Source: Stegostoma tigrinum (lineage: Eukaryota). From it: 64,000 nt of DNA. Where the stretch lies: the NCBI RefSeq assembly GCF_030684315.1, contig NC_081387.1, forward strand, positions 9,506,822 through 9,570,821, in the 5' to 3' direction. The notes beneath the pieces are model-generated. The model was not told the origin of the DNA. It saw only the letters and a list, made by a program, of their open reading frames with translations, and made no database searches. Position 1 is the stretch's first letter; each line of letters starts with the position of its first letter. Position numbers and translations under genes: made by a program. Positions 1 through 63,044 of the stretch are shown one piece after another.

Positions 1-155
1 ACCAGAATATTTCCAATAATAGTCACTAGACTTAATGATCCCGTCATAATTATGATGAAGACTACTTTGATCATGGTATTATAAACACCACCTCCAATAT
101 CAAACAATCCAGATAGGTTACTGGGAGGGACATTTATCTCCGACGAGTTCCACAT
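1..155 (-). CDS. Muscarinic acetylcholine receptor M2-like, N-terminal 51 codons (continues beyond the left edge)
   Basis: Minus-strand translation from ATG at 155: MWNSSEINVPPSNLSGLFDIGGGVYNTMIKVVFIIIMTGSLSLVTIIGNIL(V). This matches CHRM2 TM1 (GSLSLVTIIGNILV) and has N-glycosylation sequons NSS and NLS. Whether the rest is intact cannot be seen. Confidence 0.88.
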   Translation of the reverse strand, partial: MWNSSEINVPPSNLSGLFDIGGGVYNTMIKVVFIIIMTGSLSLVTIIGNIL

Positions 156-428: not shown

Positions 429-589
429 TAACGGTTAAATCTGTGATATCGAGCGTCTGTTTCCTACAGTCCCATATCCGTACAGTTCCATCTGTGGGAG
501 ACGAGGTTGAACATAACCTGAAGCTATAACTGTTATAGTTCATCCCCTTAGAATTTAAGGATTCGAGGAAATGGAACCCGGAACAGATC

Positions 590-3069
590 CAAGTGTTTGT
601 GCAGAAACCGACGAGCTTTAGCATGAATCCCATTTCTCGAACAAAATAAGGTATCCATACAGCTTTGTCCCCGAAGAATCACAACCTGACCCAGGTAAAA
701 TGTACGAAATATGTTGACCACAAAAGCATAAAATTCCCAAAGACACTGAACAGTAAAATGATCTATTTCCTTTGGCTCTGCACTTCTGAGTTCCCGGACA
801 TCTTACTGCTTTTACGATCATGGAATCTCGTGCTACTTCTACCAGAAAGTAATACATGCCCTATGATCAATGAAATTAGTAGTAGAATCAGAGCGATTGG
901 GACATCTGAGGCAATAATATAGTGAAAGAGTTTAACTCTTAACCATGCTGGTGAATCCATAACATTTCGTGATGCAAAACAAAACAAAGGAACATTCCAA
1001 CTTCTGCATTGATCTACCAGCGTAACATGTCGTGTGAAGTCTTTCAGGTGGTTCAGTGCAGTCACTGTTCCTGTCGTGATACTTGCTGCCTTCTCGGTGC
1101 AGTATTGACTCCTCAGCTTTTAGTTTAAAAAAAGCCACAGATCAATCATAAGTGAGAATGACGGTGTAACAGTCAGAACAATCTGGGGTAGCATGAGACA
1201 GATCAGCATGAATATTACATGCGGGGATGAAGTACTGTAAAGCAAACTGCTTCTAATAATAAAATAGAAGGTGTCTTATTATGAGGTGGGTAATGACAAA
1301 AAGATCTGTCAAAAGCATAGTCATTGCATAATGTGTAATACACTTGGAGAAACTGAGCTTTCCCTGAATTAAGGTCATAATTGACATAATGTTAACTGCG
1401 AAAATAAGACATAAAGAGTGACGTTTAATTTAGACTGAAATTGAACTGAACACTTTCATGGCGTACTTAGAAAATTTTAACATTTTATACAGATACGCAC
1501 GCTTGTATGGAGAGGTGTGTGTGTAAAAGTGTCCAACAAATTAATGCATCACACATATATATGCATATATTTGGTGTTGCATGAATGTGTTCGACACTTT
1601 CACTCCTACTGACGTACATTTTGCATTTTGTCGTTGAAGAAGCAAATGGTCATTTCGGAAACTCCTTAATCTATTTAGACTAAAAGCTAAGTGTGTACAT
1701 ATATCCAGAACGACTTGCATTTACTTATAAGGCTGCATAGACAAATAAAGGTTGGTTTTACCTCACGCTGACAAGAACATCTCCCCTCACTATCGGTATC
1801 AAGCCGAATCATTATGCTGGAAGATGCGGTGTGTTTTGTGACCATGTGTAGAGCAATGCTTCTTCAATGACGAAATGCAAAATGTATGTCAGTAGGAGTG
1901 AAAATGTGTTCTGTGCCGCTGGTCAGATTCAAAACCACATCAGAATAAAGTTATGAAATTTTGCATACTTTGATTGGTCATGACCTATGCTTTGGTATTA
2001 TATTCAGAGCATTAATGAACTTTCACAAGCTGACATTGATCAATTAACAAACGGAAATGAAAAAATAAAGTTATTTAGACACAAGCGGTGTTTTCTTTCT
2101 TACAAGTGCCGTATCCTCCACAATCTGTTGCCTGATTGTGATGCCTTTCCAACTCATACATGTCAAGATCGTATTCGTTTCTATGACGTCATCACGTGTA
2201 ACGACAATGTAATGAAGAGATACTTCAATTCTGGGGAAACACGTTAGCACTGATGAAACTTAGAAGCTGGATAGCTGACAATGTGGTATATCACATTAAA
2301 ATTAGGCAGTGTTAGGAGGTCGCCAATCTGATAAGCCAAGACAATGCCTGAGGTTCTGAATCACAAATATTGCAATGTAGATATGAAAATTATCAGCGCC
2401 AATTACTGCACAAAATTATCTCTAGCTGATGGATTTAATCATTTCATTTTGGTAGCTGTGGGCTGGAATCTCCAAACACTTATGACATGTGATTTTAGAA
2501 GTTCCAAAGCAGACATCAGCCATACAAGCAAGTCCAAAGCAGAAGTCAGCACACAGTAATGGCAAAGAAGATTTTAAAGTGTGATGTTCGAGGTACATTT
2601 GGCCCTTCCAGAACTCTCTTCCTCCATTAACCATGGGGCCAAGATTTTCAGCTGTCTTTGATAAAGCTTTAAGTTTCCTGTAATTAAACCATTCTAAATC
2701 ACTGTTGAAATGAGGATTTCATTATATGCAAACAGCTGATTTGGATTTCTGAATTCTGCTCTGACTTCACAAAGATTTTAATTTTCATCAGAAGCCTTTG
2801 GAGTGAATACATGGTGAAATAGAGGATTTTGAACTCAGACTTCACAATTTTTTTGTGCAAATCAAGTGTAATTGAAACATGAGTTCTTTTGAAACACCGT
2901 CAAAATATGGTAGTAGTTGAACGCCTCAATAAAATGATGAGAACAGTAATGTAGGGGTGCATAGTTCATAGCATAAAGAAAACTTACCAGGAATGTCGAT
3001 GGCAGTAAGCAGAGAATAGTATATCTTTTCAATATCAACAAAGAAGTGATGTGTCTGCCACTGATCCAT
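590..3069 (-). pseudogene. GPR139-like pseudogene A (exon 1 3069-2988, exon 2 1395-~590)
   Basis: Exon 1 reads MDQWQTHHFFVDIEKIYYSLLTAIDIP-G|gtaagt (phase 1). The acceptor tcttattttcgcag leads into VNIMSIMTLIQGKLSFSKCITHY...DCSDCYTVILTYD*...KLRSQYCTEK...NVPLFC...EVQSQRK*IILLFSVFGNFMLLW...GFMLKLVGFCTNTW, collinear with the intact gene. Stops at 1253-1255, 1142-1144 (Arg of the DR motif), 763-765 and 679-681; frameshift near 1130. Confidence 0.9.
1598..1903. repeat. 47-bp inverted repeat (arms 1598-1644 and 1857-1903)
   Basis: tttcactcctactgacgtacattttgcattttgtcgttgaagaagca versus the reverse complement of 1857-1903: 3 mismatches. Confidence 0.9.
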
Positions 3070-22219: not shown

Positions 22220-22523
22220 TAGCTCATGATATTACTTTGGGTTGCAGTAGAGTCTGGCAGTCTCCACAGCACTTTTTTTTTCAGTGCGAAATTCACTCTA
22301 TGTGGAAGCATCGCTTATTCATGAAAGAAAAAAAAATTATGTGCATGAACTGTTTAGCATCTAGTATTTACAAATTAATCACACTGCAACTATTTTTTAA
22401 AAAATAGTTCATCCTCTTATTTTGCCTACAAATCTACATATAGAGAAACCTTACCTTGTCTACCTGAATCCTGTAATATGTCATCAGTAAATTTCAGCCT
22501 TTTTTTTCTTGTCCCTCTTACAG

Positions 22524-23434
22524 TTAATTTAGTTGCAATTTTAATCTTATCCCGGGGAAAGTGCGGCCTTTCGAAATGCACGACGTACTACCTCGTCGCT
22601 ATGGCAACCACGGATCTACTGGTCATTACCACTGCAGTCATATTTGAGAAGATAAATACTTATTATTTTCCAGGATCATTCCTGGATATCACTCCCATAT
22701 GCAGTGTTATCTTCGTCCTTTGCTATGTAGCCACAGACTGTTCTGTTTGGTTCACTGTCACTTTCTCCTTTGATCGATTTGTGGCCATCTGTTGCCAGAA
22801 GCTGAAAGGAAAATATTGCTCAGAGAAAACAGTCACCGTGGTTCTTGCAACAACCTGCATTTTGCTCTGTTTAAAAAATATCCCCTGGTACTTTGCAGTT
22901 GAATCAAAAGAGTTAATTGACAATATACCTTTTTTCTGCAATATAAAACCAAGCTATTATACTGATCCAGGCTGGGTGGGGTATAATTGTGTTGATAAGG
23001 CATTAACTCCATTGCTCCCATATATTTTTATTCTGTTATTCAATGCTCTTACAGTAAGACACATATTCGTTACTAGTCGCGTCCGTAAGAACCTCAGGAG
23101 CCAAAGAAAATGTGACAATCACAGTGATCCAGAGATGGAAAGCAGAAGGAAATCTGTGATCTTACTGTTCACCATATCTGGTAGCTTCGTACTCTTGTGG
23201 CTGTTATACCTTGTGGAATTCTTTCTGTATATCATTACTGGAATGAATCCCGAGTATTACAATCATTCTTTATGTATATTTGCAAATGTTGCAATTATGA
23301 CGCTGAATTTAAACTGCTGTACAAACGCATTTATTTATGGGGTAACTCAGTCCAGGTTCAGAGAGCAATTCAAAAGTGCTGTTAAATATCCTGTCATATT
23401 AATTATTCGAAATCTTAATAAACACAACAACTGA
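22524..23434 (+). CDS. GPR139-like class A GPCR, coding exon 2 (spliced product 324 aa)
   Basis: Polypyrimidine acceptor ...ctcttacag; open 7TM frame with YYLVAMATTDLL, FDRFVAIC, LLPYIFILLFN, SVILLFTISGSF and CTNAFIYG; stop at 23432-23434. Confidence 0.93.
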
Positions 23435-39639: not shown

Positions 39640-40464
39640 AACGAAGTGGAAACGCTGGTAATATCTCTTCCCGTTGACTTGCTTTGAAAAATTGGAGAGT
39701 CATTCCATGTAAAATGTATTTGAACAGCAGTGTAACTATATCGCGACAACTGCGCCTCATCCGGAAATGTGTGGAGAATCATTGAAATATTCAGGCTTAA
39801 TTCCTGTCGTGATATGACATAAAATCCGAAAGCAACAGGAACGTGAAGCTGCCGGATGTAGTGGAGACTACATTTACAGACATCCTTCTGCTCTCCATCT
39901 TTGTTCTGACGCCTGAGTCCCTTATGGACTGAAAAGGTCCCAAAAAAATGTGAATGATAGAGCTGGCAGCAACTGAATTAAAGCATGGGAAATAGTGATA
40001 TTGAAATCTTATTAAAGCAATGAAAAGCCAACCATGCAGAATTTATATAATAAATGTGACTTGAAATTACAGAACAAGTGAATAGTATAAAATAATTTCT
40101 CTGCATTCAGTTGTAATTTAAACGATCTTTCAAACTAAGCAGAATGCTTTATCACTTGAACGCACAGTTTCAGTGGGCTTGCTGAAAAGTTTTACTTTCA
40201 GCTTGTTGGAATGAATTGCTATGAAATGATGAAATGAGAAATGATAGAGAACCAGTAAGATGTTATAAGGCTGCATATTGTAGTCCAAAGGGATCACTAG
40301 GCCCTGGTACGATGTTCATTTAAGATACTGGGAAGTACTGAGGACAGCTCTGATTCAGTAAAACCGCAGAACACGTGGACAGTATATATGCTGTTACCAT
40401 ATGGTGAAGAACATCTAGTGCCCATTGAAACGTGTTTTTGCAAAACATAAGAATTGAATGCATC
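39640..40464 (-). pseudogene. GPR139-like exon 2 remnant (pseudogene D)
   Basis: Minus-strand pieces SFHHFIAIHSNKLKVK, LFCNFKS..SAWLAFHCFNK, MESRRMSV..TSGSF and TGIKPEYFNDS..LHCCSNTF are collinear with the intact gene; many stops and frameshifts. Confidence 0.82.
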
Positions 40465-49150: not shown

Positions 49151-49614
49151 GCTGTCCCTTAACCTGAAAAAAAAGTGCTATTCAGATTGGATAAATTATA
49201 AGGCTGAAATCAACAAGTAGAGTTCCCAGTGTAAACAAACACACCACGTAATCCTATTAATTTTCAGCCCACTTCCTTCATCAATGGCTAGATGCAATAG
49301 AAACTGCCATGCCAGTTTAATAGGATTTGGAGAACATTTAATCTGAGCGTGCAATGTTTGGTTCAAGCGTTATATGTTGTTCACAATACGGAAATGGTCA
49401 AACATGTATTCTGACAATAAAAGTGTTTGATTACAAATGGTTAATGAATCTGCTTGTTTAGTAGCTGTAATTAATGTCAGTCTCCATGCAATTGAACTGT
49501 ACCACTGGAGTATTTGGTCTCTATTAAAAAGGGAAGCTACTCAATAAGTTATAGTTCTCATTGTGCAGGAGTTTTGTATCCAGCACTAAGAAAAGGATGA
49601 GCAGTTTTATAGAT

Positions 49615-51095
49615 ATGGACCAGTGGATAGTAAATAATTTCATTGTTAACTTTGAAAGGTATACTATACTATGCTTGCTCTTATCGGTATTTCTGGTAAG
49701 TCTTCAAGTCGAATTATTAATTCCACAGACTTTATTTAAATGCATTAATGTTTTTGACATTAAGCCAGTTACAATATTAGTTGAATGTCTGTCATGCTTG
49801 GTGTCATGTTAAAACAAGTTCATCATGGCCAGAGGTCCAATCTCATATTGGTTTTAGGATAAGACTCATCTGACTTTGAAAAATAAACAAATAAGCACTG
49901 TAATGTGAGAAATCTGCTGAGGTCAGTTGAAACAATCTGCCGTACTTTGTTTGATGGAAGAACAAGTCAATTCTGGAAAAGCAAAGCCTGCCGCTAGAGA
50001 CAGTGAGTACTTTGATCCTTATGTTTTTGTTTGGAATATCTCTGCCATGCCTGCGTTACAGTGAATGCATTTTCATCTTAAAACCACAAGTTGTGGTGGT
50101 AGCAAACGCCTGATCACAGGTGGGGTCATGACCTATATTAACCATCAGCCAGAGAGTACTGGTTCCAAGTGTGAGTTTGAGGGTTGTCATATCCTTTGTG
50201 ACAATAAGCCTCTGGTCAATTCATCTGGTCACTTTGCACAACTTTCTTCACTATGTCATTGGGGATGCAACATCTTCCATCATCTGTGCACGTCCAGCCC
50301 CAGAAAGACTTTATTAATGGTTTATCAACAAGATCCTAGGTTTATGCCTTGATTATTTTGTCCTTTAAATGGCAAGGGTATCTGTAGGTTTTGGAATTGT
50401 ATGTTGTTGAACATTTGCTATTGGCGGTTACAAGTTGTGTAACCTTAGTTGCCATTCACCAAAGCACAAAACATATAGATCAGACTGTGGACATAAATAT
50501 TGGCTATCTATGTACTAATATGTTTATTTTTCTTTGTCGATTTCATTAGTCAGCCAACGTTCATGCATGACATTTTTTGTCGTGATGAGGTAAATAGGCT
50601 GGCAACAGACTCTTTTTCTGTCACCATTTTTCCAATGTAGTGGAATGTACAGTCTGCTGACAATCATGTGTTGTTGAGTATTGATACGTAGAAACATATA
50701 AATCTTTCCTCTCATAACAACATTCTGTAAACTGTTTCTGAAGGTGTACATGGCAGACACCTGACATAGATTATCCATGAGCATGTTGAAGTAATCTTCT
50801 GACTGTGTAAATAGGGTACCACATCATTAACATACAGACATTCCTTTAAAAGAATACATAATTTTCAGCCTTTATTGCTAGAAGATTTTCTCATCTAATC
50901 GTGCCTCCAGGTACATTCCCTCCATGTCAACATTGTTAGTCTAGTCAGTATCACCAACGTAAATAAACCATACAAAACATAGGCAAAGCAAAATATCACT
51001 GAATATCAAATAACTGTTTGGCATTTATTGATAATTCATAACAGAACATTAAATACGATTCCCTATATATATATATATATGCATGTATGTATGTA

Positions 51096-51130
<35 letters not shown>

Positions 51131-51530
51131 CAGTCAATCTAGTGACAACTCTGATGCTATCACATGGAAAATGTATTGAATCCAAATGATTTGGTTTTGT
51201 TTCTGATTTATAGCGTTCGCAGTTCTTTGGGTTTTTATTAATGATCTGCTGATTGTTATCATCAACCTGATAATGATGGACATTCCAGTCACTCATTATA
51301 AACAAGGTATTACTGTGTTGTCCATTCCCCACATGCATTATTGATCCACATCCTGTTCACAGTCACCTTCATCACGATAACTCAGAGAAAACTTCATCTG
51401 TGGCTCTGCAAACAGTGACTGTACTACCATGTTTATTGTAAATGAGGTGGCATTTAATGCTTATGGATCAGTATTGCCTGTGGAATGTCCCCTTACATTT
51501 CCACATTGTGAAGCTGTAATAGGGCATCAT
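49615..51530 (+). pseudogene. GPR139-like pseudogene E (exon 1 49615-49695, exon 2 from 51134)
   Basis: MDQWIVNNFIVNFER/YYTMLALIGIS-G|gtaagt with a 1-nt deletion; exon 2 NLVTTLMLSHGKCIESK*..DLLIVIINL..LFTVTF..SEKTSSVALQTVTVL..DQYCLWNVPL. Confidence 0.85.
51064..51130. repeat. (AT)n/(GTAT)n/(GT)n microsatellite
   Basis: Directly visible; abuts the exon 2 acceptor of pseudogene E. Confidence 0.9.
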
Positions 51531-51759
51531 GATTCAGGTTAACAATTGAGTACAATGCTGAAGATAATGCAATGAAAATTCCCAAGGATATCATCAGAAA
51601 ATCATGGGTATTTGTATCGGAAAATGATTAGAAGGTTGGGGCTCTTATCTTTCAAAATTAAGATGGCTTAAAAAGTGATCCAAACATGGGTCTTAAATGA
51701 TGGAAAATTGCCTTACTATTGACAGAGAGGTAATATTTCTTCTGTTGAGAAAAACTGTA

Positions 51760-54700
51760 AGAGAGGACGTCACTGAAGGGAGGAGTCGGAGGGTGGAGCA
51801 GTAGCACAGTGTATTTATAAATGTATCTGAGTTTCGGGCACATTATGGCTGCGAAAAAAAAAAGACTGACTTACAGGGAAGCTGTGGCCTGAATGGCTGT
51901 AGGAAATTTGCACTAAATTTGAAAAGAAAGAACGCGGCAAAGGAGCACTAATACATTAATTTACTCATGAATAACTTTGTATAAAGAATAAGTTGATTAA
52001 TTATGTAGAGACAGTTGGACAGGTAATGTGCTGTAACTGTATGAAGTGAGAGCTGGCAGTTCCTATTGTGAACTGCAGTGACCACATCTGCAGTAAGTAT
52101 TGGTTGCTAGAACTATCGCTCAGGGTTTATGAGTATGAATCTGAGCTTCAAACACTGCCTTACAATTTGGGAGGGGGAGAAGTACCTAGACACTTTGCTT
52201 CTGGATGTGGTTATGCCTGTATGAGACACTTACTCCCTGTGAGGATGAGGAAGAGAGCTATTGGGAAGATGAGATGGCTGACCACTGCACCGAGGTACAG
52301 GGGGCCAGTCAAGGAGGGGGCAACAAGGACAGTTGTAGGGGACTCTCTAATTAAGGGCATTGATAGCATCCTTTGTAAGCAGGAACAAAAGTCTCATGGT
52401 GTCTTGCCTGCCCATTACCAGGGTGAGGGACATTCTGACCTGCTTAAAAGAATGTTGGATTAGAAGGTTGAGGATGCAGTTATTGTGAACAACGTTTGTT
52501 AAAGCAACATTTGCAGAGCTAGAAAGGAGGAAATGTTTGGGGGTTATCAAGCATTATGAATGAAATGAGGGAACAGGACCTCAAGGGTTAAAATACCCGG
52601 AGCACTACCCGGGCCATGTGCAAATTGACTTAAGGATAAGTAAATATGGGAACTGAACACGTGGCAAAAAGTTTGGTTGCAGGAAAGAGGGGTTCCATTT
52701 CATGGGGCATAAGCAACAGTTTTAGAACAGGAGGCAACCATACCTTTGGGATGGTCACCACCTGAAATTATTTGGAACCAGTGTTCTAGTGAAAAGGATA
52801 AATAGGGTGGTCACTAGGATTTTGATGCCAGAATTTTTAAAAAAAGAACAAGTTATTAAAAAAAAACAAGTATGAAGGCACTTTACCCAAATGTTGGGAG
52901 CATTCCAAAAAATGTAGATTAGTGAATGGCACAAATTACTGTGAATGAGTATGATTTAGTAGCCATTAGGGAAACATGACTGCAGGATGGTCACAACTGG
53001 GACTTAAATTTCTTAGGGGATCAGTCTATACAGAAGAACACACAGGAAGGTAAGTGGGGTGGTGTAGCTTTGATATTTAAGGATGAAATCAGGGTGGTAG
53101 TGTGAGTTGATATAGGTTACATGCAGAATAATGTTGAATCAATTTGGGTCAAAATTAGAAATTCTAAAAAGAAAAAGCCACTGATAGGCATATTCTTGAG
53201 GTCACCAAGTAGTAGCATCACATTGGGGTGGGCAATAAACAAACACATAGCTCATGTCTATAAACATGGCATGTTAATTATCATGGGGGACTGTCATATC
53301 AATTGGTTGGACCAGGTCTGTCAAGGCAGCCTTGGGGAGCTGTTAATTGAATGCATTGATGATAGTTTTCTTGAATACTATGGAACAGACCTGACAAGGG
53401 AGGAAAATATTCCAGATCTGGTCCAGTGTAATGAGACATAAATGATTACTGATCTCATGGTTAGGAATCCTCTTGAAAGGTGCAATCATAGTTTCGTTGA
53501 ATGTAGAATGCAGATTGGAATGTGAAAAGATAAAAGACACTACCAAGTCCCTGAGCTTGAGAACGGAGAATGCAGTAGAAAGAGGGAGGAATTTGCAAAA
53601 GTGAACTGGAAACAGAGACTTTATGGTGGGACAGTTGAGGAACAATGGAGTGCTTATAAATCAAGTTTTCAAAGTGCTCAGCAAAAGAATGTTCCAGGAT
53701 GTAACTAGAGGTACCAAGGGGTAATTAGCCATGGATATCTAAGAAAATAAGAGAGGCGATCAAATTGAAAGATAAGGCATACTAAGGAATAAAAGAATGA
53801 TGCAAGTAAGATTAGGCCCAATCAAGGATAGTAGTGGTAAGTTGTGTGTGGAGTCAGATGAGATAGGGGAAGCGCTAAATGAATATTTTTCAACAGTATT
53901 CACTCTAGAAAATGACAATGTTGTCAAGAAGAATACTGAGATACAGGCTACTAGACTAGGTGGGATTGAGGTTCACAAGGAAGAGGTATTAGAAATCCTA
54001 CAGAGGGTGAAGATAGATAGGTCCCCTGGGCCGGATGGGATTTATCCTCAGATCCTCTGGGAAGCCAGGGAGGAGATTGCCGAGCCTTTGGCATTGATCT
54101 TTAACTTGTCTTTGTCTACAGTAATAGTGCCAGATGACTGGAGGATAACAAATGTGGTTCCCCTGTTCAAGAAGGGGAGTAGAGACAACCTTGGAAATTA
54201 TAGACCAGTGAGCCTTACCTCAGTTGTTGGTAAAGTGTTGGAAAAGGTTATAAGGGATAGGATTTATCTTCATCTAGAAAAGAATAAATTGATTGGGGAT
54301 AGTCGGCACGGTTTTGTGAAGGGAAGGTCGTGCCTCACAAATCTTATTGAGGTCTTTGAGAAGGTGACCAAACAGGTCGATTAGAGTAAACCAGTTGATG
54401 TGGTGTATATGGATTTCAGCAAGGCGTTTGATAAGGTTGCCCACAGTAGGCTATTGTACAAAATGTGGAGGAATGGAATTGTGGGAGATTTGGCATTTTG
54501 GATTGGAAATTAGCTTGCTGAAAGAAGACAGAGGGTGGTAGTTGATGGGAAATGTTCATCCTGGAGACCAGTTACTAGTGGTGTACCGCAAGGGTCGGTG
54601 TTGGGTCCACTGCTGTTTGTCAGTATTTTATAAATGACCTGGATGAGGGCGTAGAAGGATGGGTTAGAAAATTTGCAGACGACACTAAGGTCGGTGGAGT

Positions 54701-57540
54701 TGTGGATAGTGACGAAGGATGTTGTAGGTTACAAAGAGACATAGATAAGCTGCAGAGCTGGGCTGAGAGGTGGCAAATGGAGTTTAATGCGGACAAGCGT
54801 GAGGTGATCCACTTTGGTAGGAGTAACCGGAAGGCAAAGTACAGGGCTAATGGTAAGATTCTTGGTAGTGTAGATGGGCAGAGAGACCTCGGTGTCCATG
54901 TACACAGATCCTTGAAAGTTGCCACCCAGGTTGACAGCGCTGTTAAGAAGGCATACAGTGTTTTAGCTTTTATTAATAGAGAGATCGAGTTCCAGAACCA
55001 AGAGGTTATGGTGAAGCTGTACAAAACTCTGGTGTGGCCGCACTTGGAGTATTGTGTACAGTTCTGGTCACCGCACTATAAGAAGGATGTGGAAGCTTTG
55101 GAAAAGGTGCAGAGGAGATTTACAAGGATGTTGCCTGGTATGGAGGGAAGGTCTTACGAGGAAAGGCTGAGGGACTTGAGACTGTTTTCATTGGAGAGAA
55201 GAAGGTTGAGAGGTGACTTAATTGAGACATATAAAATAAACAGAGGGTTAGATAGGGTGGATAGGGAGAGTCATTTTCCTAGGATGGTGATGGCGAGCAT
55301 GAGGGGGCATAGCTTTAAATTGAGGGGTGAAAGATATGGGACAGATGCCAGAGGTAGTTTCTTTACTCAGAGATTAGTAAGGGAATGGAACGCTTTGCCT
55401 GCAACCGTGGTAGATTCGCCAACTTTAGGTACATTTAAGTCGTCATTGGACAAGCATATGGACGTACATGGAATAGTGCAGGTTAGATGGGCTTGAGATC
55501 GGTATGACAGGTCGGCACAACATCGAGGGCCGAAGGGCCTGTACTGTGCTGTAATGTTCTATGTTCTATGTTCTAAAGTTGTTAAGACCAGTCGGAAATT
55601 AGAAGATAGGGAAACAAATTACAGGTCAACAGAAACCCACAAAAAAAATCTGTAAAGAAAAGCAAGATAGATAATGAGATTAAACTAGCTCAGAATATAA
55701 AGACCTGTAACACAAGTTTCTACAAATACATAAAATGTAAATGAGTGGCAAAGGTAAGTGTTAGTCCTTCAGAGGATTAGAACAGGGATTAATAATGTGA
55801 TATGAGGAAATAGCCGAGGCATTGAACAGATATTTTGCATTGGTTTTCACAGTGGAGGACAGGAATAACATGCTAGTAATTGATGACAAGGAAACTAAGA
55901 TAGCTGAAGAGCCAGAAATGATCACTATCACAAAATAAGTGGTGCTGGGAAAGCTAATGGAGCTGAAGGTGGACAAGTCTCCTAGCCCTGATGGAATACA
56001 TCCCAGGGTACCTAAAGAGGTGACAGGAGAAATAGCAAATGCACCCTCTGTAATTTTCTCTGGGGCAATTCCAGTAGATTAGAGAACAGAAAATGTGACA
56101 TCACTGTTTAGTAAAAGGAGGTAGACAAAAAATGGGGAATTATAGGCTGGTTAGTTTAACTTTTGTAGGTGGAAAATGCTTGAAACTGTCATCAGGGAAG
56201 AAAAGAAAAACAATACATCTGGACAGAAATTGTCCCATTCAGCAGCTGCAGCATGGTTTCGTAAGGGGCCGATCATATTTGACTAATTTGCTGGAATTCT
56301 ATGAAGCCATTTTGAACACAGCCGACAACAAGGAGCCAGTACATGTGGTGTATCTGGTTTTCCAAAAGGCATTCATCAAAGTACCGCACAAAAGGCTGCT
56401 GCATTCTATAAATGTGCATGGCATTACAGGCAATACATTAGCATGGATAGAGGATTGGTTAACTAACAGAAAACAAAGAGTGGGGATAACTGAATGCTTC
56501 CCCGGTTGGTAATCAGTGTCAATGGGTGTGGCTCAGGGATCAGTGTTGAGACCACATCTGTTTACAATTTACATAGATGCTTTGGAGCTGATGACCATGT
56601 GTAGTATGTGAAAGTTTGTGATGACACTAAGATAAATGGTGGAACAAAGTGTGCAGAAGACTCTGAAATATTGGATAGGGGTATTGATCATTTCAGCGAA
56701 AGGACAAGCGTTTGGGAGATGCATTACAATTTTGACAAAATATGAAGTCAATCATGTTGGTCGGGACTACAGTGAAAAGGACTATTATTTGAATGGTTAA
56801 AAAAGATGCATCATGCCACTGTGCAGAGGCATCTTGTTGTCCTTGTTCACAAATCACAGAAAGTTGGTTTGCACGTGCAACAGATAATTAAGAAGGCATT
56901 TGGAAGTTTGTCCTTAATTGCTAGAGGGATTGAGATTAAAATCAGGAAGGTTATGTTAAGCTATATAGGGTGTTGGTGTGGCTACCTGGAGTACTGTGTG
57001 CAGTTTTGGTCTCCTTACACTTGAAAAAGGATGTATTGACACTGGAGGGGATGCAGAGGTGCATCGCGAGGTTGCTTCCAGAGTGGAGGGGTTTGGATAA
57101 CGCGGAGAAACTGAGTAAACTGAAGTTATATTCATTGAAATTTAGAAGCATGAGGGAGGATCTTACGAAAGCATTTAAAATTATGAAGGGGATAACATGG
57201 AAGCAGGGTAGATGTTTCCACTGGTGTGTTAAACTAGAACAAGAGGGCATAGTCTCAAAATTATGGAGAGAAAATTTAAGGTTGAATAGAGGAGGATATT
57301 CTTCACTCAGAGTGTTATGAATTTGTGGAATTCCCATCTCAGTGAAGTCGCTTAACCTTCCTCATTGAATATTTTTGTAGATAAGACAGATAATTTTAGA
57401 GCCGTGATTGAACTGAGGGTTCTGGTGAAAGGGTGAGTAAATGGAGCTGAGGCCATGAAAAGATCAGCTAGGGTCGTATTGAATGGCAGAGCAGGCTCAA
57501 AGGGCTAGATGGCCTGTCTCTGCTCCTGTTTCTTATGTAC
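51760..57540 (+). mobile_element. Old, near full-length CR1 LINE (ORF1 zinc finger/esterase, APE and RT remnants) hosting a younger CR1
   Basis: CSDHICSK, VVGDSLIKG, VESIWVKIRN, GNYRLVSLT, QHGFVRGRSYLTNL; 3' tail at ~57530. Confidence 0.85.
53783..55575 (+). mobile_element. Young 5'-truncated CR1 LINE, same family as 28006-31862
   Basis: RT ORF pieces 53797-54384 and 54702-55496 are nearly identical to the 28-30 kb copy; (GTTCTAT)n tail. Confidence 0.95.
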
Positions 57541-57589
57541 TATATTTGCCACTACAATGCGAACAAGATATCGTTTGAGGAAATGAAAA

Positions 57590-58730
57590 GAAAGCACTTG
57601 AAGACCATTAAGAATATGGAACTTACTAGTACAAGTCTGATTCGAATGACTACTGCAGATACATTCAGGTTGGATGTAAACAAACATTTGAGGCGGCATG
57701 GAATAAATGGTTCTTATGATATTTTTATGGAAAGAACAACGTGGAAGGGCAAATAAAATATTGGCATCTGAATGGTCTCATTGGGCCAAGCCATATTCTC
57801 TGCATCGTAAAACTAATTTAAATTTGGCTGAACAATAACAACTATTGTGTACGTCAGTGCAGTAAATATAATTTAAATTTGTAAACTATTGCAGTGGTGA
57901 TCAGTTAAAATGTTTGTGGCACACATTGTCTGAAATGATTACAGAAATAAAATGCCCATCAAGACCATTGGCAAAGATGGAATTATTTCTGTGTATATTA
58001 CTCAAATTCTGTACAGCTTGTTATGAATTAAAATGGTCATTGGGAATGCTTTTGCTGAATCTCTTTACAAAGATCACAGGAGGACTCAATTATTTAGAAA
58101 ATGTAAAAAAAATGTTTTCGTATATGTTAAGAATATGGAATTTGCCAGCATGAGAACTGATTGCAATGAATACTATAGGTGCATTCAAAATGGCTACAGA
58201 CAAGTGTGAGGTGGAAGGATATAAATGTTAAGAAATGACATGGAAGGGCAAATAAAACACAGGCAGCAGAATGGCCTCATCGTATCAATGAATTTCATTC
58301 ATATGGTGTGTAATGTAAATTATTACTGAAATATGCTGTCACTCGATGTGTGTCAAGAAATTGGAACTTGTTAGCACTACGAATGGTTGCAATGAACACT
58401 ATGGATGCATTCAAAATGCGTATAGGCAAAAATATGATTGATTGGAATGATTACTATGGATGCATTCAAAATGGATACAGGCAAAAATATGACTTATTGG
58501 AATGAATAGGATGGACTAATTGGAATGACTTGTTTGGATGCACTCAAAATAGAAAAAGGCAAAGATATGACATGGAAGGAACTGGGTGCTTATGGCAATA
58601 TATTTATATGAGCAAAAATTGGAACAAATAGTATAGATGAACATGTGAGGCGGAATAGAATAAATGCTTTGGTCTCAAGGGTCAAGCCATTTTCTTTGTG
58701 TCAGATATCTAATTTAAATTATTACTCAAC
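57590..58730 (+). repeat. Degenerate tandem duplications (~220-bp units with nested ~54-bp units)
   Basis: Repeated aagaatatggaa..aatga..actat(g)gatgcattcaaaatg..ggcaaaaatatga and ggaagggcaaataaaa..gaatgg.ctcat. Confidence 0.7.
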
Positions 58731-58869
58731 ATCAAGAAATACTTTGTAAAATTGGCAAAGAAAATATGTCAAGCAATTTTATCTGCATTGTATTTCTACC
58801 AGAAATTATTACGCACTAACAATGTTAACGAACACCCAGACTTCAGTCTCCTGCAGATAATTTCCAATG

Positions 58870-59060
58870 GAAACAAACAAAAAAAACCACTAGGAATCAG
58901 AAACAAAAATAGAAGTGATCGAAGAGCTGGGCATATTTGACAGAATCAGTGGAGAGGGAAAACAGAGTTAAAATTTTAGGTCCAGGGGCTCCTCTTCTGA
59001 AAAAGGAATGCTGCCTGACTGGCTGAGCTTTGCAAGCAATTTCTGTTTTCATTTCTGATA
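58870..59060. mobile_element. Decayed palindromic Penelope-derived element
   Basis: Inverted arms homologous to 322-428 and 10718-10850. Confidence 0.55.
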
Positions 59061-59274
59061 TTTTCTCATGAACCTGTTCAGAGATGTTAACATACAGCTT
59101 CGGAGCAGGAGGAACTTGAACTCAGGCTTCTTAGCTCAGAAATAGCACATTGAGCCAGAAGGGCCCATATCAGTTTCCAGGATTCGAGAGATTCATTGAG
59201 AACCCTTGGTCAGCTCACAGGCTTTGTAATTGCACAGTGAAATCAGATGATATTTAGGGAGAAATCAGGAATAG

Positions 59275-59790
59275 AATCAAGGTGGCAGTAGAGTAGGACT
59301 CTTCAGCGGAGCTCGTAGGCTCTGTCTATTTCTGTGCTTATTTTTCCTCCCATGTTTTTTAAAAAATTCTTTCTTCCTACTTCCCATCCTTGGCCAGTAT
59401 TGGCAATACCCAGTGTAAAGCTAAGTGTGTCTCCAGGCCTCGAGAGCCTCATTATCAAACCAGACCTATGTGGTCTGGGTGCCAGAGTGCACTCGTCTGC
59501 TCTATCTTCTCTGCTTGAAATGATTTTATTTCTGAAGTTTTTATTTCTTTATTCTTCAAAATTACTGCTATGATTTTGTACCTGGGTACTTTTCATACTG
59601 AGGATGGCATGAAGTTCTGCAATGCTGAACTTCTGTTTTAAATATATTTTTCTAAATTCTTCCGGAGAGTCTGTACCAAGATACTTTTGGATCTGCCTGG
59701 GCTTCTTAAAAGATGACTTTGTAAATGTTTTGCTGTGCTCGTGTGAGTACATGTGACAATAAATATAGGTCTAATTCTAATTCAAATTCA
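59275..59790 (+). repeat. Unclassified interspersed repeat related to 9410-9965
   Basis: Ends in gagtacatgtgacaataaa followed by (aattc)-like short repeats. Confidence 0.5.
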
Positions 59791-60564
59791 ATGTGAAGGT
59801 AAATGAGGATTGTCATACCAAGGGTCAGATGTGACACAAAAGGGAAGTCAAACCTCAGGACAGTTAAAAAGTATTTTCAGCCAAAGTTGTCAAAATATAT
59901 AGGTTTCATTTTGCAGTATGAGCTTCAGAGAATATTCTTGTACTATAAAAATCCTGCTATACATTATCAACTTGTATTTCATCATAAGCAAAACTATCTT
60001 TGCATTAGTTACTTTTAGCATAGTTTTCATAGATCATGCAAACTACATAATTACAGAAATAGCTTAAAAATGACTTAATACCCCCAATCATATCAGTGCT
60101 CCCGTCCCCACATATCCAATTTAAAAATGCATAAAATCAATGTCAAATGACTTAGACTAATTCCTGTCTTCCAGAGGTGAAGCTGCATCGTGCTTCACAA
60201 CCGCCTTTGGCTGATAGAAGATTGAAGGCTTTCATCTTCAAAGGAGTAGTAATGCTGGAGTCTTGTAGAACCTTCTTAGGTACTTCGGATTTGCAGAATT
60301 TGCATTAATTACTGTTCTCAGTATGTGAGCTGAAAGGAAACAGAGAAACAAAATTAGTCTTCTCTTCCCAATTAACTATTTGAAAAACACAAAGATGAAC
60401 TACATTGGATAGCCAAACACTAAAAACTTAGTGATGTGTTTACAATGCCATTCATCAGCATCTTCATTCAAATCAACAAAGTAATTAACTATTAAAACAT
60501 AACTAAATGCACCAATGAGATCATTCATAATTAAAAGTGAACATTATCGGAGCGATGTGATAAC

Positions 60565-61460
60565 ACTAGAAAGCGTGTAGACGAGATTTACCGGGATGTT
60601 GCCTGAGCTGGAAAGTCTTAATTTTGGAGAGCAAGATTGCTGCTGATTTCCTTGCAGCACAGGAGGCTGGGTGGGTCATGACTAAAATATATAAAGCTAG
60701 AAGGATCAAGGGTAGAATCAAAGATTCACACAGCACGGAAACAGGCCTTTCCTCCATCCTTCTTCCATTCCCATATGAAACTAATCTGATTTGCCAGCGT
60801 TTTTCCTATATCGCTCTGAACTTTTCCTATTCATGTACTTATCCAAATATCTTTTACATGTTGCAATTGTGCCTGTATCTGCCAATTCCTCTGAAAATTC
60901 ATTCTAAAAGCCATCTGCCCTCTGTGCAAAACAATTGCCTTCCACACCCGTTTAAACCATTCTCTTCTCACCTTAAAATTATGCTCTTTCATTTTTAAAC
61001 GCACCACCCTAGGGAAAGGACCATTGGTGTTTACCGAATCTCTGCCTCTCACGATTTCATAAACATCCATAAGGTTACCCCTCAACCTTCAAAGCTTCAT
61101 TGAAAAGCGACCCAGCCTAACCAGCCTCTTGCAGGAAGGAATATTTCCCTTTAGCAGAGGGGGGGGGGGGGGGGGAATGACCAGAAGGTTGATTATAAGG
61201 AGCAGGAGGCTTAGAGATGACTTTTTTTTCTTCAGCCTGAGGGTGACATGAATATGCATCTCACTGTGTGCATGGTGGTAAAATTACAAATCCTCATATC
61301 TGTAAGAAGTGTTGTGCTCTTATGCTACCGAGGCATAATCGATTTTGCACCAGTGCGGGAAAGTTGGATTACAAGAGTGAGGCAGTACTTTCTTTGAATA
61401 TCACAGGCTCAGTAGACTGAGGCACACTTTTTTTTTTGTGCTGCACATTCCTGTTACTGT
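60565..61460. mobile_element. Nested CR1 3' fragments in both orientations
   Basis: Minus-strand RGNLMDVYEIVRG..HNFKVR (60715-61130) lies inside a plus-strand remnant. Confidence 0.65.
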
Positions 61461-61589
61461 AACTCTGAGAACTGTCACAAACATTATGAAGTGTTTGTAA
61501 CACATTCGTTCCTTTACAACCTGGATGGCAGCAGCTCACTGAGCCATGAGTTGCCTTTTGGCTCCAAAATGTCTGGATTTTTAATTCTA

Positions 61590-61613
61590 AAGTATTCTTT
61601 CCTTCTTTGCTAG
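61590..61613 (+). promoter_or_regulatory. Splice acceptor preceding the muscarinic coding exon
   Basis: ttctttccttctttgctag; vertebrate CHRM genes typically have non-coding 5' exons spliced to one coding exon. Confidence 0.7.
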
Positions 61614-61649
61614 GCCTCGTCAGTGCCAGCTGTACATCACAATGAATTG

Positions 61650-63044
61650 ATGGTGAAATTAATTGCGATGAATGAGACTTTCAGTCAGAGAACAGACACG
61701 CTTACTTCTGAAAGAGGCAGTTTTTACCGATCTGTCAAAATGGTCACTATTGCGATTGTGACAGGATCTTTAAGTTTGGTGACCATTATTGGAAACATTC
61801 TAGTCCTGCTTTCTGTGCAAGTAAACAGACATTTACGAACTATTAACAACTATTTTATTTGCAGCTTGGCTTGCGCTGATTTGATTCTCGGGGCATTTTC
61901 CATGAATCTATATACAATATACACTGTGACTGGGTATTGGCCATTGAGTCCATTGGTGTGTGAGTTCTGGCTTGCTGTCGATCACATTGCTACTACCGCG
62001 TCTGGAATGAACCTCCTTCTCATCAGCTTTGACCGTTATTTCTGCGTAACAAGACCCTTCAGTTACCCAATGAAAAGAACAAAAAAAATGTCAGGGATCA
62101 TGATTACAGCAGCGTGGGGGCTGTCTGTTGTCGTATGGTGTCCCGTTATTCTCGCCTGGCAGTTCACCGTTGGTGGCTGGGCAGTTAACGAGGGCGAGTG
62201 TTACGCACAATTCTTCTCAGATCCAGTCGTTTCTTTTGGCATTTCAATAGCCGCCTTCTTTCTCCCCGTTGCCATCATGGTGGGTTTATATGTGCGCATA
62301 TCTCAAGCCAGCAGGAATCCAATGAAGGATGATGAAACAGAATATAAAACAAGCAAAGGCACGACTCCTCCCAGTTCAGCGAGAGACAAAGTCGTGGACC
62401 CGAAATGTAACAAAATCTTAAACAATTCTCGCGGGCTGATCCACATCGGAAAGCAAAGTGGTAAAATACCTTTTGAAATAACAGTCGCGAAGGAGTTTTC
62501 AGATGATTTAACTTCACTCAACCTGTCCCCTACAAACCAAATTAAGGAAGGGAAAATACAAGGAGGAACTGTGCTCCCTGGTATACGATGCACAACAGAC
62601 AATGACAATCTCTCTGACTTCAAGGTAATTAGTTTGTCTCAAAAATGTGACAACTGTGATCACACATTAGTTTGCAAGCAAGGCGGTGTTGACCAGAATG
62701 GCGATGAAAATCTTATCAGAGGCGTTCGTGGGATCATTGAAATGACCAAGGCTATTGCTAAAAAGAAGAGGGGAACTGTAACGCGCAAAAAGGCAGTGAC
62801 TAGGACTGTCCTGGCCATTCTGTTAGCATTTATCATCACCTGGATCCCATATAGTTTCATGGTCCTCACAAACACTTTCTGTCCAATCTGTATCCCCAAC
62901 ACAGCCTGGACAATTGCATATTGGATCTGTTACATCAACAGCACTATCAATCCAGCCTGCTACGCCCTGTGTAATCAAACCTTCAAGAAAACGTTCAAGA
63001 ATCTTCTTGTCTGTCAGTGCAAGAATATTAGAGCATCGAGATAA
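61650..63044 (+). CDS. chrm2-like: Muscarinic acetylcholine receptor M2-like, divergent paralog (intronless CDS; ATG at 61650 or 61668)
   Basis: GSLSLVTIIGNILV, NNYFICSLACADL, SFDRYFCVTRP, ECYAQFFS (M2-type Phe in ECL2), VTRTVLAIL, CYINSTINPACY, and a C-terminus KNIRASR like M2 KNIGATR. Confidence 0.95.
   Translation: MVKLIAMNETFSQRTDTLTSERGSFYRSVKMVTIAIVTGSLSLVTIIGNILVLLSVQVNRHLRTINNYFICSLACADLILGAFSMNLYTIYTVTGYWPLSPLVCEFWLAVDHIATTASGMNLLLISFDRYFCVTRPFSYPMKRTKKMSGIMITAAWGLSVVVWCPVILAWQFTVGGWAVNEGECYAQFFSDPVVSFGISIAAFFLPVAIMVGLYVRISQASRNPMKDDETEYKTSKGTTPPSSARDKVVDPKCNKILNNSRGLIHIGKQSGKIPFEITVAKEFSDDLTSLNLSPTNQIKEGKIQGGTVLPGIRCTTDNDNLSDFKVISLSQKCDNCDHTLVCKQGGVDQNGDENLIRGVRGIIEMTKAIAKKKRGTVTRKKAVTRTVLAILLAFIITWIPYSFMVLTNTFCPICIPNTAWTIAYWICYINSTINPACYALCNQTFKKTFKNLLVCQCKNIRASR

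Follow-up and report, generated by a model that had tools for sequence, protein, structure and literature searches.

An intact M2-like receptor of Stegostoma tigrinum with an altered ligand pocket, one of a CHRM2-derived cluster with putative GPR139-like promoters

Background

What does a muscarinic receptor recognize when part of its acetylcholine (ACh) pocket has been replaced and the receptor is otherwise intact? This question is raised by a window of 64,000 nucleotides of Stegostoma tigrinum DNA (the whole stretch analysed here), in which the first-pass annotation had identified an M2-like reading frame with substitutions at orthosteric positions and had proposed neofunctionalisation toward another cationic amine. 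In vertebrates, Pedersen et al. 2018 described five muscarinic genes together with teleost duplicates, with six ACh-binding residues conserved across all of their vertebrate sequences, and the accessible part of that text contains neither the word 'cartilaginous' nor the word 'tandem' (PMC6298421). Literature coverage, which leaves out most subscription journals, returned no report of a shark CHRM2 expansion or of a GPR139-like array, and the available portions of this vertebrate muscarinic survey (PMC6298421), of a class A GPCR survey (PMC6504862) and of the whale shark genome paper (PMC8455134) make no mention of such an expansion. RefSeq carries the M2-like genes under automatic names.

The reading that we prefer, at a probability of roughly 0.5, places the receptor in the window, intact and under purifying selection, in a family of 18 copies that descends from CHRM2. 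Its transcription is predicted to start at a GPR139-like promoter and first exon captured by the family, and it likely couples to Gi/o and senses a small cationic amine, either instead of ACh or in addition to it. The paralog cluster and the captured promoter, neither of which appears in the first-pass annotation, are the stronger findings.

Results and Discussion

The receptor frame and its pocket

The forward-strand frame at 61650-63044 is open over 464 aa in a single exon and its closest relative with a solved structure is human M2 (E 4.3e-150), in agreement with its original description as an intact M2-like receptor. The database protein identical to it is named 'muscarinic acetylcholine receptor M2-like [Stegostoma tigrinum]', and it is 57% identical to the canonical CHRM2 of the same species, onto which its residues were mapped for numbering. 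The parts of this gene are as follows.

61650..63044, forward strand: M2-like receptor frame, 464 aa, in an exon that starts at 61614
61980..62006, forward strand: TM3 pocket, with D3.32 kept and Y3.33H, S3.36T, N3.37T and V3.40G
62232..62255, forward strand: TM5 pocket, with T5.39S, T5.42I and A5.43S, and A5.46 kept
62787..62855, forward strand: TM6, with E6.30K, V6.33-T6.34-V6.37-L6.38 (M2/M4-type), W6.48 and Y6.51 kept, and N6.52S
62919..62963, forward strand: TM7, with Y7.39, C7.42, Y7.43 and NPxxY kept

Every residue given in the first-pass annotation was found at its coordinates by this map. D3.32 (61980-61982), W6.48 (62841), Y6.51 (62850), Y7.39 (62919) and Y7.43 (62931) are retained, and the substitutions comprise Y3.33H (61983-61985), S3.36T (61992) and N3.37T (61995) in TM3, T5.39S (62232), T5.42I (62241) and A5.43S (62244) in TM5, and N6.52S (62853-62855). 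To these we add V3.40G (62004), A4.58C, V45.52A and E6.30K (62787), so that the altered pocket spells H-T-T-G-S-I-S-S; A5.46 is unchanged. The class A activation motifs are intact (D2.50, DRY, P5.50, Y5.58, the CWxP-type W6.48/P6.50 and NPxxY), and the disulfide cysteine of ECL2, C45.50, is present. Assembly error was rejected as the cause of this sequence because short-read contigs (run X2), which may come from the assembly's own sample, span the complete frame with 0 differences; they exclude nothing beyond that. Four sequence runs cover introns and repeats as DNA would; no joint between exon 1 and exon 2 occurs in them, which speaks neither for nor against splicing.

Pocket positions were scored with our own list of 22 muscarinic sites. 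All 22 are identical among the five canonical CHRM1-5 genes of S. tigrinum; the focal receptor does not match this invariant pocket, differing at 8 of the 22 sites. Relative to a background of 134 core positions invariant in the five canonical genes, changes fall on 8/22 pocket sites and on 14/112 other core sites (p 0.011). When the pocket is limited to 10 sites named in the literature, the proportions are 4/10 and 18/124 (p 0.059). The earlier claim that changes cluster in the pocket is thus upheld with the longer list and loses force with the shorter one; the clustering is beyond chance but modest.

A cluster of M2-like genes derived from CHRM2

The genome contains 18 intact M2-like frames on one contig (C44, 9.38-10.96 Mb) in addition to the five canonical genes CHRM1-5, which lie on five other contigs with intact pockets; this gene set was recovered identically by two independent queries against the species' own genome. 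Genome searches also returned one broken M2-like copy on C44, and mapping of the cluster added a second pseudogene and one fragment, giving 18 intact copies, 2 pseudogenes and 1 fragment. The mapping covered 1.16 Mb of the 1.7-Mb cluster region, with 9.74-10.14 and 10.51-10.65 Mb (~0.54 Mb) outside it, and the two genome searches found no M2-like frames within these two intervals. Seven copies with 84-98% identity form a recent burst. That the focal gene is itself the CHRM2 ortholog was rejected, as the canonical CHRM2, with an intact pocket and a short branch, lies on another contig (C22).

The pockets of these paralogs are diverse. D3.32, Y6.51 and Y7.43 are retained in all 18, N6.52 in 7, and V3.40 and A5.43 in 1 of 18 each; there are 16 distinct pockets among the 18 copies and none is canonical. 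Changes elsewhere in the cluster include N3.37Y, W6.48G/A and Y7.39N/Q, and N6.52 is replaced by F, D, H, I, V, S or Y. Two copies (L018 and L019) carry damaged DRY motifs. Some cluster relatives in other sharks (P0006, P0094) have a canonical pocket at 18 labelled sites.

The first-pass annotation had called for a phylogeny of CHRM2-like paralogs, and trees were built from hand-picked rows, 86 proteins for a quick tree (most tetrapod M2 matches omitted) and 29 for a careful maximum-likelihood tree whose bootstrap had not settled completely. In the 29-row tree, one clade (99/99) unites the cluster genes of three shark orders (carpet, mackerel and ground sharks), the focal gene included, and is sister to the canonical CHRM2 of S. 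tigrinum (96/93). The focal gene groups with CHRM2 and not with CHRM4 or CHRM1/3/5, and has the longest branch of the M2-like family. No ortholog of it occurs among the best 120 of 1480 and 1620 matches, in which the next best protein is 58% identical. The M2-like copies of stingrays, which carry N3.37Y/S, A5.43G and N6.52S, have an origin of their own; one shared with the shark cluster was rejected, since a common clade has p-AU 1.5e-56.

The distance in synonymous sites (dS) from the M2-like paralogs to canonical CHRM2 is 0.55-0.84 (0.84 for the focal gene), while CHRM2-CHRM4 is saturated, and both the intron end and the 3' flank of the M2-like exon are homologous to those of canonical CHRM2. 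Taken together, these observations favour a DNA-level duplication of CHRM2 within sharks as the probable origin of the cluster. A retrocopy was rejected because the intron end and acceptor, homologous to those of canonical CHRM2, were carried along. A third M2/M4 ohnolog, for which the cluster would be placed outside all canonical CHRM2, was not rejected by the tree test (23.8 log units worse, p-AU 0.07), although the unsaturated dS and the homologous flanks speak against it.

Ligand and signalling

The ACh-bound M2 structure provides a frame of reference, in which D3.32 and the lid of Y3.33, Y6.51 and Y7.39 hold the ammonium group and N6.52 is hydrogen-bonded to ACh through water (PMC9870890, from the part available). 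A review separates an amine pocket (3.32, 3.36, 6.48, 6.51, 7.39, 7.43) from a major pocket (3.33, 3.37, 4.57, 5.46, 6.52) (PMC10938299, likewise in part). The focal receptor retains 5/6 of the amine-pocket and 2/5 of the major-pocket residues, and its S3.36T is conservative. Judged from these residues, the pocket fits an amine ligand with another tail, which does not imply that ACh has been lost.

The original case for such a loss drew on the designer receptors known as DREADDs (hM2D/hM4D), with which the focal receptor shares the replacement of Y3.33 on a muscarinic scaffold. DREADDs use Y3.33C with A5.46G, A5.46 being the second DREADD position; the focal receptor differs in that it has His at 3.33 and keeps A5.46. 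The argument is weakened by the retained A5.46 and by a natural receptor with Y3.33H that answers ACh. In copies of other sharks (P0014, P0076, P0100) A5.46G is present with Y3.33 intact.

The natural receptor is Ir-mAChR-B of ticks, a muscarinic receptor of the protostome B type. We take M1 positions 106, 109, 193 and 382 to correspond to 3.33, 3.36, 5.43 and 6.52. In the sections available of its description, this receptor carries Y106H, S109C, A193I and N382H in M1 numbers, is activated by ACh (EC50 0.68 uM) and is atropine-insensitive, and an A-type receptor given the four B-type changes keeps its ACh response and loses atropine block (PMC13022164). The shark and tick receptors thus coincide in four altered positions, 3.33 (where each has His), 3.36, 5.43 and 6.52. 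They differ in that the tick receptor has a separate origin, is a single gene and has other residues at three of the four sites, that the shark receptor has four more pocket changes, and that ACh activation is known for the tick receptor only. This precedent weakens the proposal that ACh has been lost, and by analogy the safest prediction for the focal receptor is the loss of classical antagonist binding.

The strongest competing explanation follows from the same precedent. The copies might still be ACh receptors with B-type-like pharmacology (lower affinity, atropine-insensitive) that the captured promoter has brought into a new cell type, with pocket changes that tune sensitivity or kinetics rather than ligand identity. 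This is consistent with the tick receptor and the modified A-type receptor, with the near-complete amine pocket of the focal receptor and with the canonical pockets of P0006 and P0094. However, 16 pockets in 18 copies, fixed across species, exceed the needs of one ligand; the paralog changes extend to N3.37, W6.48 and Y7.39 and to seven different replacements of the ACh-contacting N6.52, and the focal receptor additionally lacks N3.37, V3.40, T5.39 and T5.42. We consider this explanation unlikely, if still a serious competitor. A single ligand does not readily account for 16 different pockets that have been conserved; a shifted best ligand is for this reason our leading guess, and we lean slightly toward a best ligand of the focal receptor other than ACh.

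For signalling, the relevant positions are 5.62, 6.33, 6.34, 6.37 and 6.38, where we take S, V, T, I and L to be the M2/M4-type Gi/o face. The focal receptor has S, V, T, V and L (M2/M4-type residues at 5.62, 6.33, 6.34 and 6.38) and the M1/M3/M5 genes of the same genome have Y, A, A, L and S. Since this intracellular face is kept, coupling to Gi/o is likely. E6.30K may, by analogy, raise basal activity.

Selection and timing of pocket change

Codon models (F3x4, own script) were fitted to 274 core codons of 19 sequences, with deep nodes weakly supported. On the branch of the focal gene dN/dS is 0.25, which differs from 1 at p 1.6e-10, and this branch is under purifying selection. A young neutral pseudogene, for which the first-pass annotation had expected dN/dS near 1 along the whole frame, was accordingly rejected on the open frame and the branch value. 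Family-wide, dN/dS of the pocket is 0.35, above the 0.16 of other invariant sites (p 6e-7) and no different from the 0.30 of all other core sites (p 0.26). Within the pocket, dN/dS is 0.20 at head-side and 0.46 at tail-side sites, and sites 3.40, 5.43 and 6.52 fit dN/dS near 1. Positive selection was undetected in the 19 sequences, a sample weak for episodic bursts, as model M2a fits no better than M1a and at no site is dN/dS significantly greater than 1. The site-wise analysis that had been suggested thus reveals a pocket freed from its former constraint, with positive selection unproven. The original proposal of neofunctionalisation is supported in part, by a gene that is intact and constrained, by a pocket with its amine side kept and its other side changed, and by pockets that were altered early in the paralog family and stable afterwards.

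The timing of change was examined in six ortholog pairs of S. tigrinum paralogs with Chiloscyllium or Hemiscyllium (bamboo/epaulette sharks), in which 31 pocket sites are shared-derived and 4 differ, as opposed to 221 and 238 at other core sites (p 2e-6). Adding a seventh, doubtful pair gives 36:9 for the pocket and 267:282 for the other core sites (p 4e-5); the pairs are partly dependent, as some shared states date from deeper nodes. The pockets of these paralogs, which do not include the focal gene, changed early and were static later, as new functions predict.

It is also conceivable that the family is functional and the focal gene is decaying, with recently relaxed constraint and pocket changes that mark lost ligand binding in a birth-and-death array. 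The focal gene has the longest branch and lacks a whale, bamboo or epaulette shark ortholog among the matches listed, the cluster also contains two pseudogenes and one fragment of M2-like type, L018 and L019 have damaged DRY motifs, and three pocket sites fit dN/dS near 1. Nevertheless, the branch value of 0.25 was reached at dS 0.84 from the canonical gene (an average compatible with very recent loss), and the open frame, activation motifs, promoter, donor and acceptor of the focal gene are all intact. We regard decay as improbable.

A putative promoter and first exon from a GPR139-like array

The RefSeq model of the focal gene (P0002) is 39 residues longer than the 464-aa frame, giving 503 aa with exon 1, and 27 of these residues are encoded at 49615-49695, a letter-for-letter match to the P0002 N-terminus. 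This exon ends in the consensus donor CTG/GTAAGT (the slash marks the junction), 11.9 kb upstream of the M2-like exon. The hydrophobic 39-residue extension might serve as a signal peptide. The corresponding features of the window are listed below.

49378..49749, forward strand: GPR139-like promoter and exon 1 cassette before the focal gene (profile match E 3e-74, homologous copies genome-wide, alignment; promoter putative)
49522-49533, forward strand: TATA-like TATTAAAAAGGG in this cassette (putative promoter)
49615..49695, forward strand: coding part of exon 1, 27 codons, with the donor (P0002 N-terminus, frame analysis)
49696..61613, forward strand: predicted 11.9-kb intron, without GPR139-like exon 2
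61612-61613, forward strand: AG of the focal acceptor, with a pyrimidine tract, homologous to the canonical CHRM2 acceptor
1..155, reverse strand: start of the neighbouring M2-like paralog L003, which continues beyond the window
583..1450, reverse strand: broken GPR139-like exon 2, between cassette and L003
2944..3301, reverse strand: promoter and exon 1 cassette upstream of L003
13034..13381, reverse strand: extra cassette without a receptor exon of its own
22478..23434, forward strand: open GPR139-like exon 2, 318 aa from an internal ATG
39658..40409, reverse strand: broken GPR139-like exon 2

Exon 1 and ~200 preceding bases recur genome-wide. They head the genes of a two-exon receptor family, named 'probable G-protein coupled receptor 139' in RefSeq, as its putative promoter and first exon. 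This assignment rests on position, as cassettes on C44 sit 0.3-5 kb upstream of GPR139-like second exons, and on translation, which matches the N-termini of the family. A first look at the genome gave 4613 candidates for the family, of which 125 were scored, each at E <1e-100; among 1901 protein matches the 120 best are all from sharks or rays, and similarity to human GPR139 is distant (E 2e-13). Within the 1.16 Mb mapped, 42 exon 2 matches were scored and 25 have an open frame of at least 290 aa. The M2-like paralogs are embedded in a giant GPR139-like array, which surrounds the cluster and donates its putative promoter and exon 1; its coding exon is unrelated to the M2-like exon.

Upstream of each of the 18 intact M2-like genes, which lie in both orientations, the closest cassette is complete and shares the strand of the gene, at 2.9-16.3 kb, an arrangement found at 16% of 20,000 random points; the chance probability stays small when nine lineages rather than 18 genes are counted. 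Because all 18 descend from one or few insertions, this association reflects one conserved unit rather than 18 separate captures. An intact donor is present in 17/18 of the linked cassettes and in 2/5 of the others (p 0.02), the exception being that of L018, whose DRY motif is also damaged. Around canonical CHRM2, no cassette was found in the 60 kb before the gene or in the 10 kb after it.

The exon 1 of the focal gene is one base shorter than the 82-nt exon of the family, and this loss places it in frame with the M2-like exon. In a simple acceptor scan, exon 1 is in frame through a shifted acceptor in L013, L014, L015 and L019, and no acceptor was found for L003 and L008; with predicted acceptors, the remaining units yield a short upstream frame whose stop precedes the main start. 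The ATG of exon 1 is missing from L005. A join between exon 1 and the M2-like exon is made by RefSeq models in S. tigrinum (P0002, P0244, P0246, P0248), with L013 and L014 joined as in the focal gene and L017 in a related manner, and also in Hemiscyllium (P0260) and Chiloscyllium (P0261); a further Chiloscyllium model (P0253) has the order cassette, GPR139-like exon, M2-like exon. These joins are gene-model predictions, many other RefSeq M2-like models have no exon-1 extension, and the cross-species support for the cassette consists of such protein models. The closest copy of the focal cassette lies on another contig (C58, 78% over 507 bp) and has the same 1-nt loss, with no GPR139-like or M2-like exon in 49 kb downstream.

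From this anatomy we judge it highly probable that the M2-like exon is spliced from the GPR139-like cassette. The cassettes could instead be passengers, the first CHRM2 copy having landed beside an array gene with which it was co-duplicated, so that the M2-like exon would use another promoter or be barely transcribed and the RefSeq joins would be gene-finder artefacts. Such an account gains from the common descent of the 18 cases, which are not independent, from the 3/18 units with an open GPR139-like exon 2 after the cassette (in 3 it is broken and in 12 absent) and from the short upstream frame, with no fusion, in most units. It is nonetheless a poor prospect, because the 12 units without an array exon 2 have kept promoter motifs and donor, donors are lost mainly where an intact M2-like exon is missing downstream, the frame was restored in two ways (1-nt loss and shifted acceptor), and the upstream frames predicted from the exon-1 ATG all stay clear of the main start.

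Capture of the putative promoter, as we prefer to read the locus, would have proceeded by steps. As the homologous flanks show, the exon that encodes CHRM2 was copied into the GPR139-like array together with the end of its intron and its acceptor. There an upstream array cassette would splice onto the CHRM2-type acceptor, so that an M2-like receptor would be made in whichever cells use the array promoter. Cassette and exon were multiplied as a unit, inversions included, and the pocket of each lineage was altered early and then kept, as observed for paralogs other than the focal gene. In the focal receptor D3.32, W6.48, Y6.51, Y7.39 and Y7.43 would still hold the ammonium head, and H3.33, T3.37, G3.40, I5.42, S5.43 and S6.52 would reshape the side of the ester tail; poor binding of classical antagonists would follow, as would a preference for some other choline-like or alkyl amine, with ACh as a weaker agonist. 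Output would be via Gi/o, with a chemosensory role plausible.

Possible sensory role and comparison with known systems

The focal receptor resembles CHRM2 in its single coding exon, acceptor, D3.32 with aromatic cage, DRY and NPxxY motifs and M2/M4-type G-protein face. It differs in its pocket (8/22 changed), in being one of 18 tandem copies on another contig and in an upstream exon derived from an unrelated receptor family. With their altered pockets, the 18 copies likely form an undescribed amine-sensor family, which ACh may still activate.

A parallel for the family may be the trace amine-associated receptors (TAAR) and lamprey TARL, in which a brain aminergic receptor gave rise to a tandem, single-exon birth-and-death family that kept D3.32 and varied the rest of the pocket (PMC8890504, in the portion available). 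That family has a 5-HT4-like ancestor, demonstrated olfactory expression and amine ligands (PMC8890504), whereas the shark family has a CHRM2 parent and a putative promoter-capture route.

Two chemoreceptor-like traits are found in the M2-like genes, namely a tandem multigene cluster with birth and death and diversified pockets on a conserved scaffold (16/18 distinct). In catshark, the available sections of one study state that olfactory neurons all express Go and that shark OR, TAAR and V1R families have 6-13, 3-5 and 2-4 genes only (PMC10116579). The tandem birth and death, the TAAR precedent, Go and the small OR, TAAR and V1R families give circumstantial support to a sensory role. Caution is advised by catshark V2R genes, which are expressed also in testis and rectal gland (PMC11979771, in part). 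No muscarinic or GPR139 entry turned up in four supplementary files of a shark immune single-cell study (PMC11372145), a result of little weight since genes may be listed there by id. On analogy with known chemoreceptor families, we hold a chemosensory role of the M2-like family to be possible but tentative.

A bolder proposal, which we consider doubtful, is that galeomorph sharks built a new chemoreceptor family by placing an M2 exon under the promoter of an array of sensory receptors that is itself giant and undescribed. Each of the 18 copies, which outnumber the shark OR, TAAR or V1R repertoires, would then sense an amine or quaternary ammonium compound of its own, signalling through Go in the sensory cells of the array, and stingrays would have reshaped the same pocket positions independently.

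Muscarinic pockets have been described as invariant in vertebrates and sharks as chemoreceptor-poor, and here 23 muscarinic-type genes occur in one shark, 18 of them with remodelled pockets. Capture of a promoter and exon would be a visible mechanism by which a neurotransmitter receptor could join a receptor repertoire. With few, well-defined genes on a scaffold that is well understood, amine detection in sharks becomes open to direct tests. The M2-like cluster also gives access to the question of which cells use the GPR139-like array, and it supplies natural pocket variants at positions studied in drug and chemogenetic work.

The composite Lhx2/Ebf site of mouse olfactory promoters tolerates little change in spacing (PMC5608512, in the part available). 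In the consensus of the cassette promoters, a TAAT core lies a few bases from a CTCC-N-GGA motif.

Cassettes and receptor exons

The cassette predicted to splice onto the M2-like exon of the query, which comprises the promoter and first exon of a two-exon GPR139-like receptor, has its closest copy on contig C58 of the S. tigrinum genome (L031:875-1378, 78% over 507 bp), and this copy shares the 1-nt loss in exon 1 of the query cassette. A search of the 49 kb downstream of the C58 copy did not find a receptor exon. On C44, the contig that carries the M2-like paralogs, an open GPR139-like exon 2 is present in the units of paralogs L017, L008 and L014:

C44 9445874, open GPR139-like exon 2 (L046)
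C44 10187059, open GPR139-like exon 2 (L055)
C44 10226619, open GPR139-like exon 2 (L059)

These exons lie downstream of the cassette and ahead of the M2-like exon of the same unit, and a single promoter may drive two different receptors at these loci via alternative splicing.

Divergent M2-like receptors

The following M2-like copies on C44 are considered here:

C44 10.73-10.97 Mb, tandem duplicates L006, L007, L009, L011, L012, L016 and L018
C44 9596773-9597720, intact paralog L010

The seven tandem duplicates are recent (84-98% identity) and replace the toggle residue W6.48 with Gly or Ala, along with N3.37Y and A5.46S, a pattern also found in whale shark (protein model P0243) and Chiloscyllium (P0261). 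Intracellular loop 3 is almost entirely missing from paralog L010, through an in-frame loss that leaves an open frame of 349 aa, and the paralog also carries Y7.39Q and C7.42F. The DRY motif has become DHY in L018, whose cassette has lost its donor, and DWY in L019; both are likely copies in decay.

An expansion of CHRM2 independent of that in sharks is found in the stingrays Hemitrygon and Hypanus (P0012, P0013, P0017, P0019, P0050, P0079, P0090), with copies showing N3.37Y/S, A5.43G, F6.44C and N6.52S.

The GPR139-like family and reverse transcriptase remnants

The following features of the window are considered here:

22478-23434, GPR139-like family member
28086-30625, reverse transcriptase remnant
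41497-43400, reverse transcriptase remnant
53797-55496, reverse transcriptase remnant, within the predicted query intron

From their translations, we take the remnants to be of LINE and Penelope-like type. The two-exon GPR139-like family is giant in S. tigrinum (4613 first-look candidates), with at least two promoter types and arrays on C44, C47, C53, C55, C56, C59, C60, C64, C25 and other contigs; a literature search for such a family found no publication. Some GPR139-like first exons (L036:1127-1861, L038) contain an in-frame 42-bp tandem repeat, a 14-residue unit in approximately ten copies.
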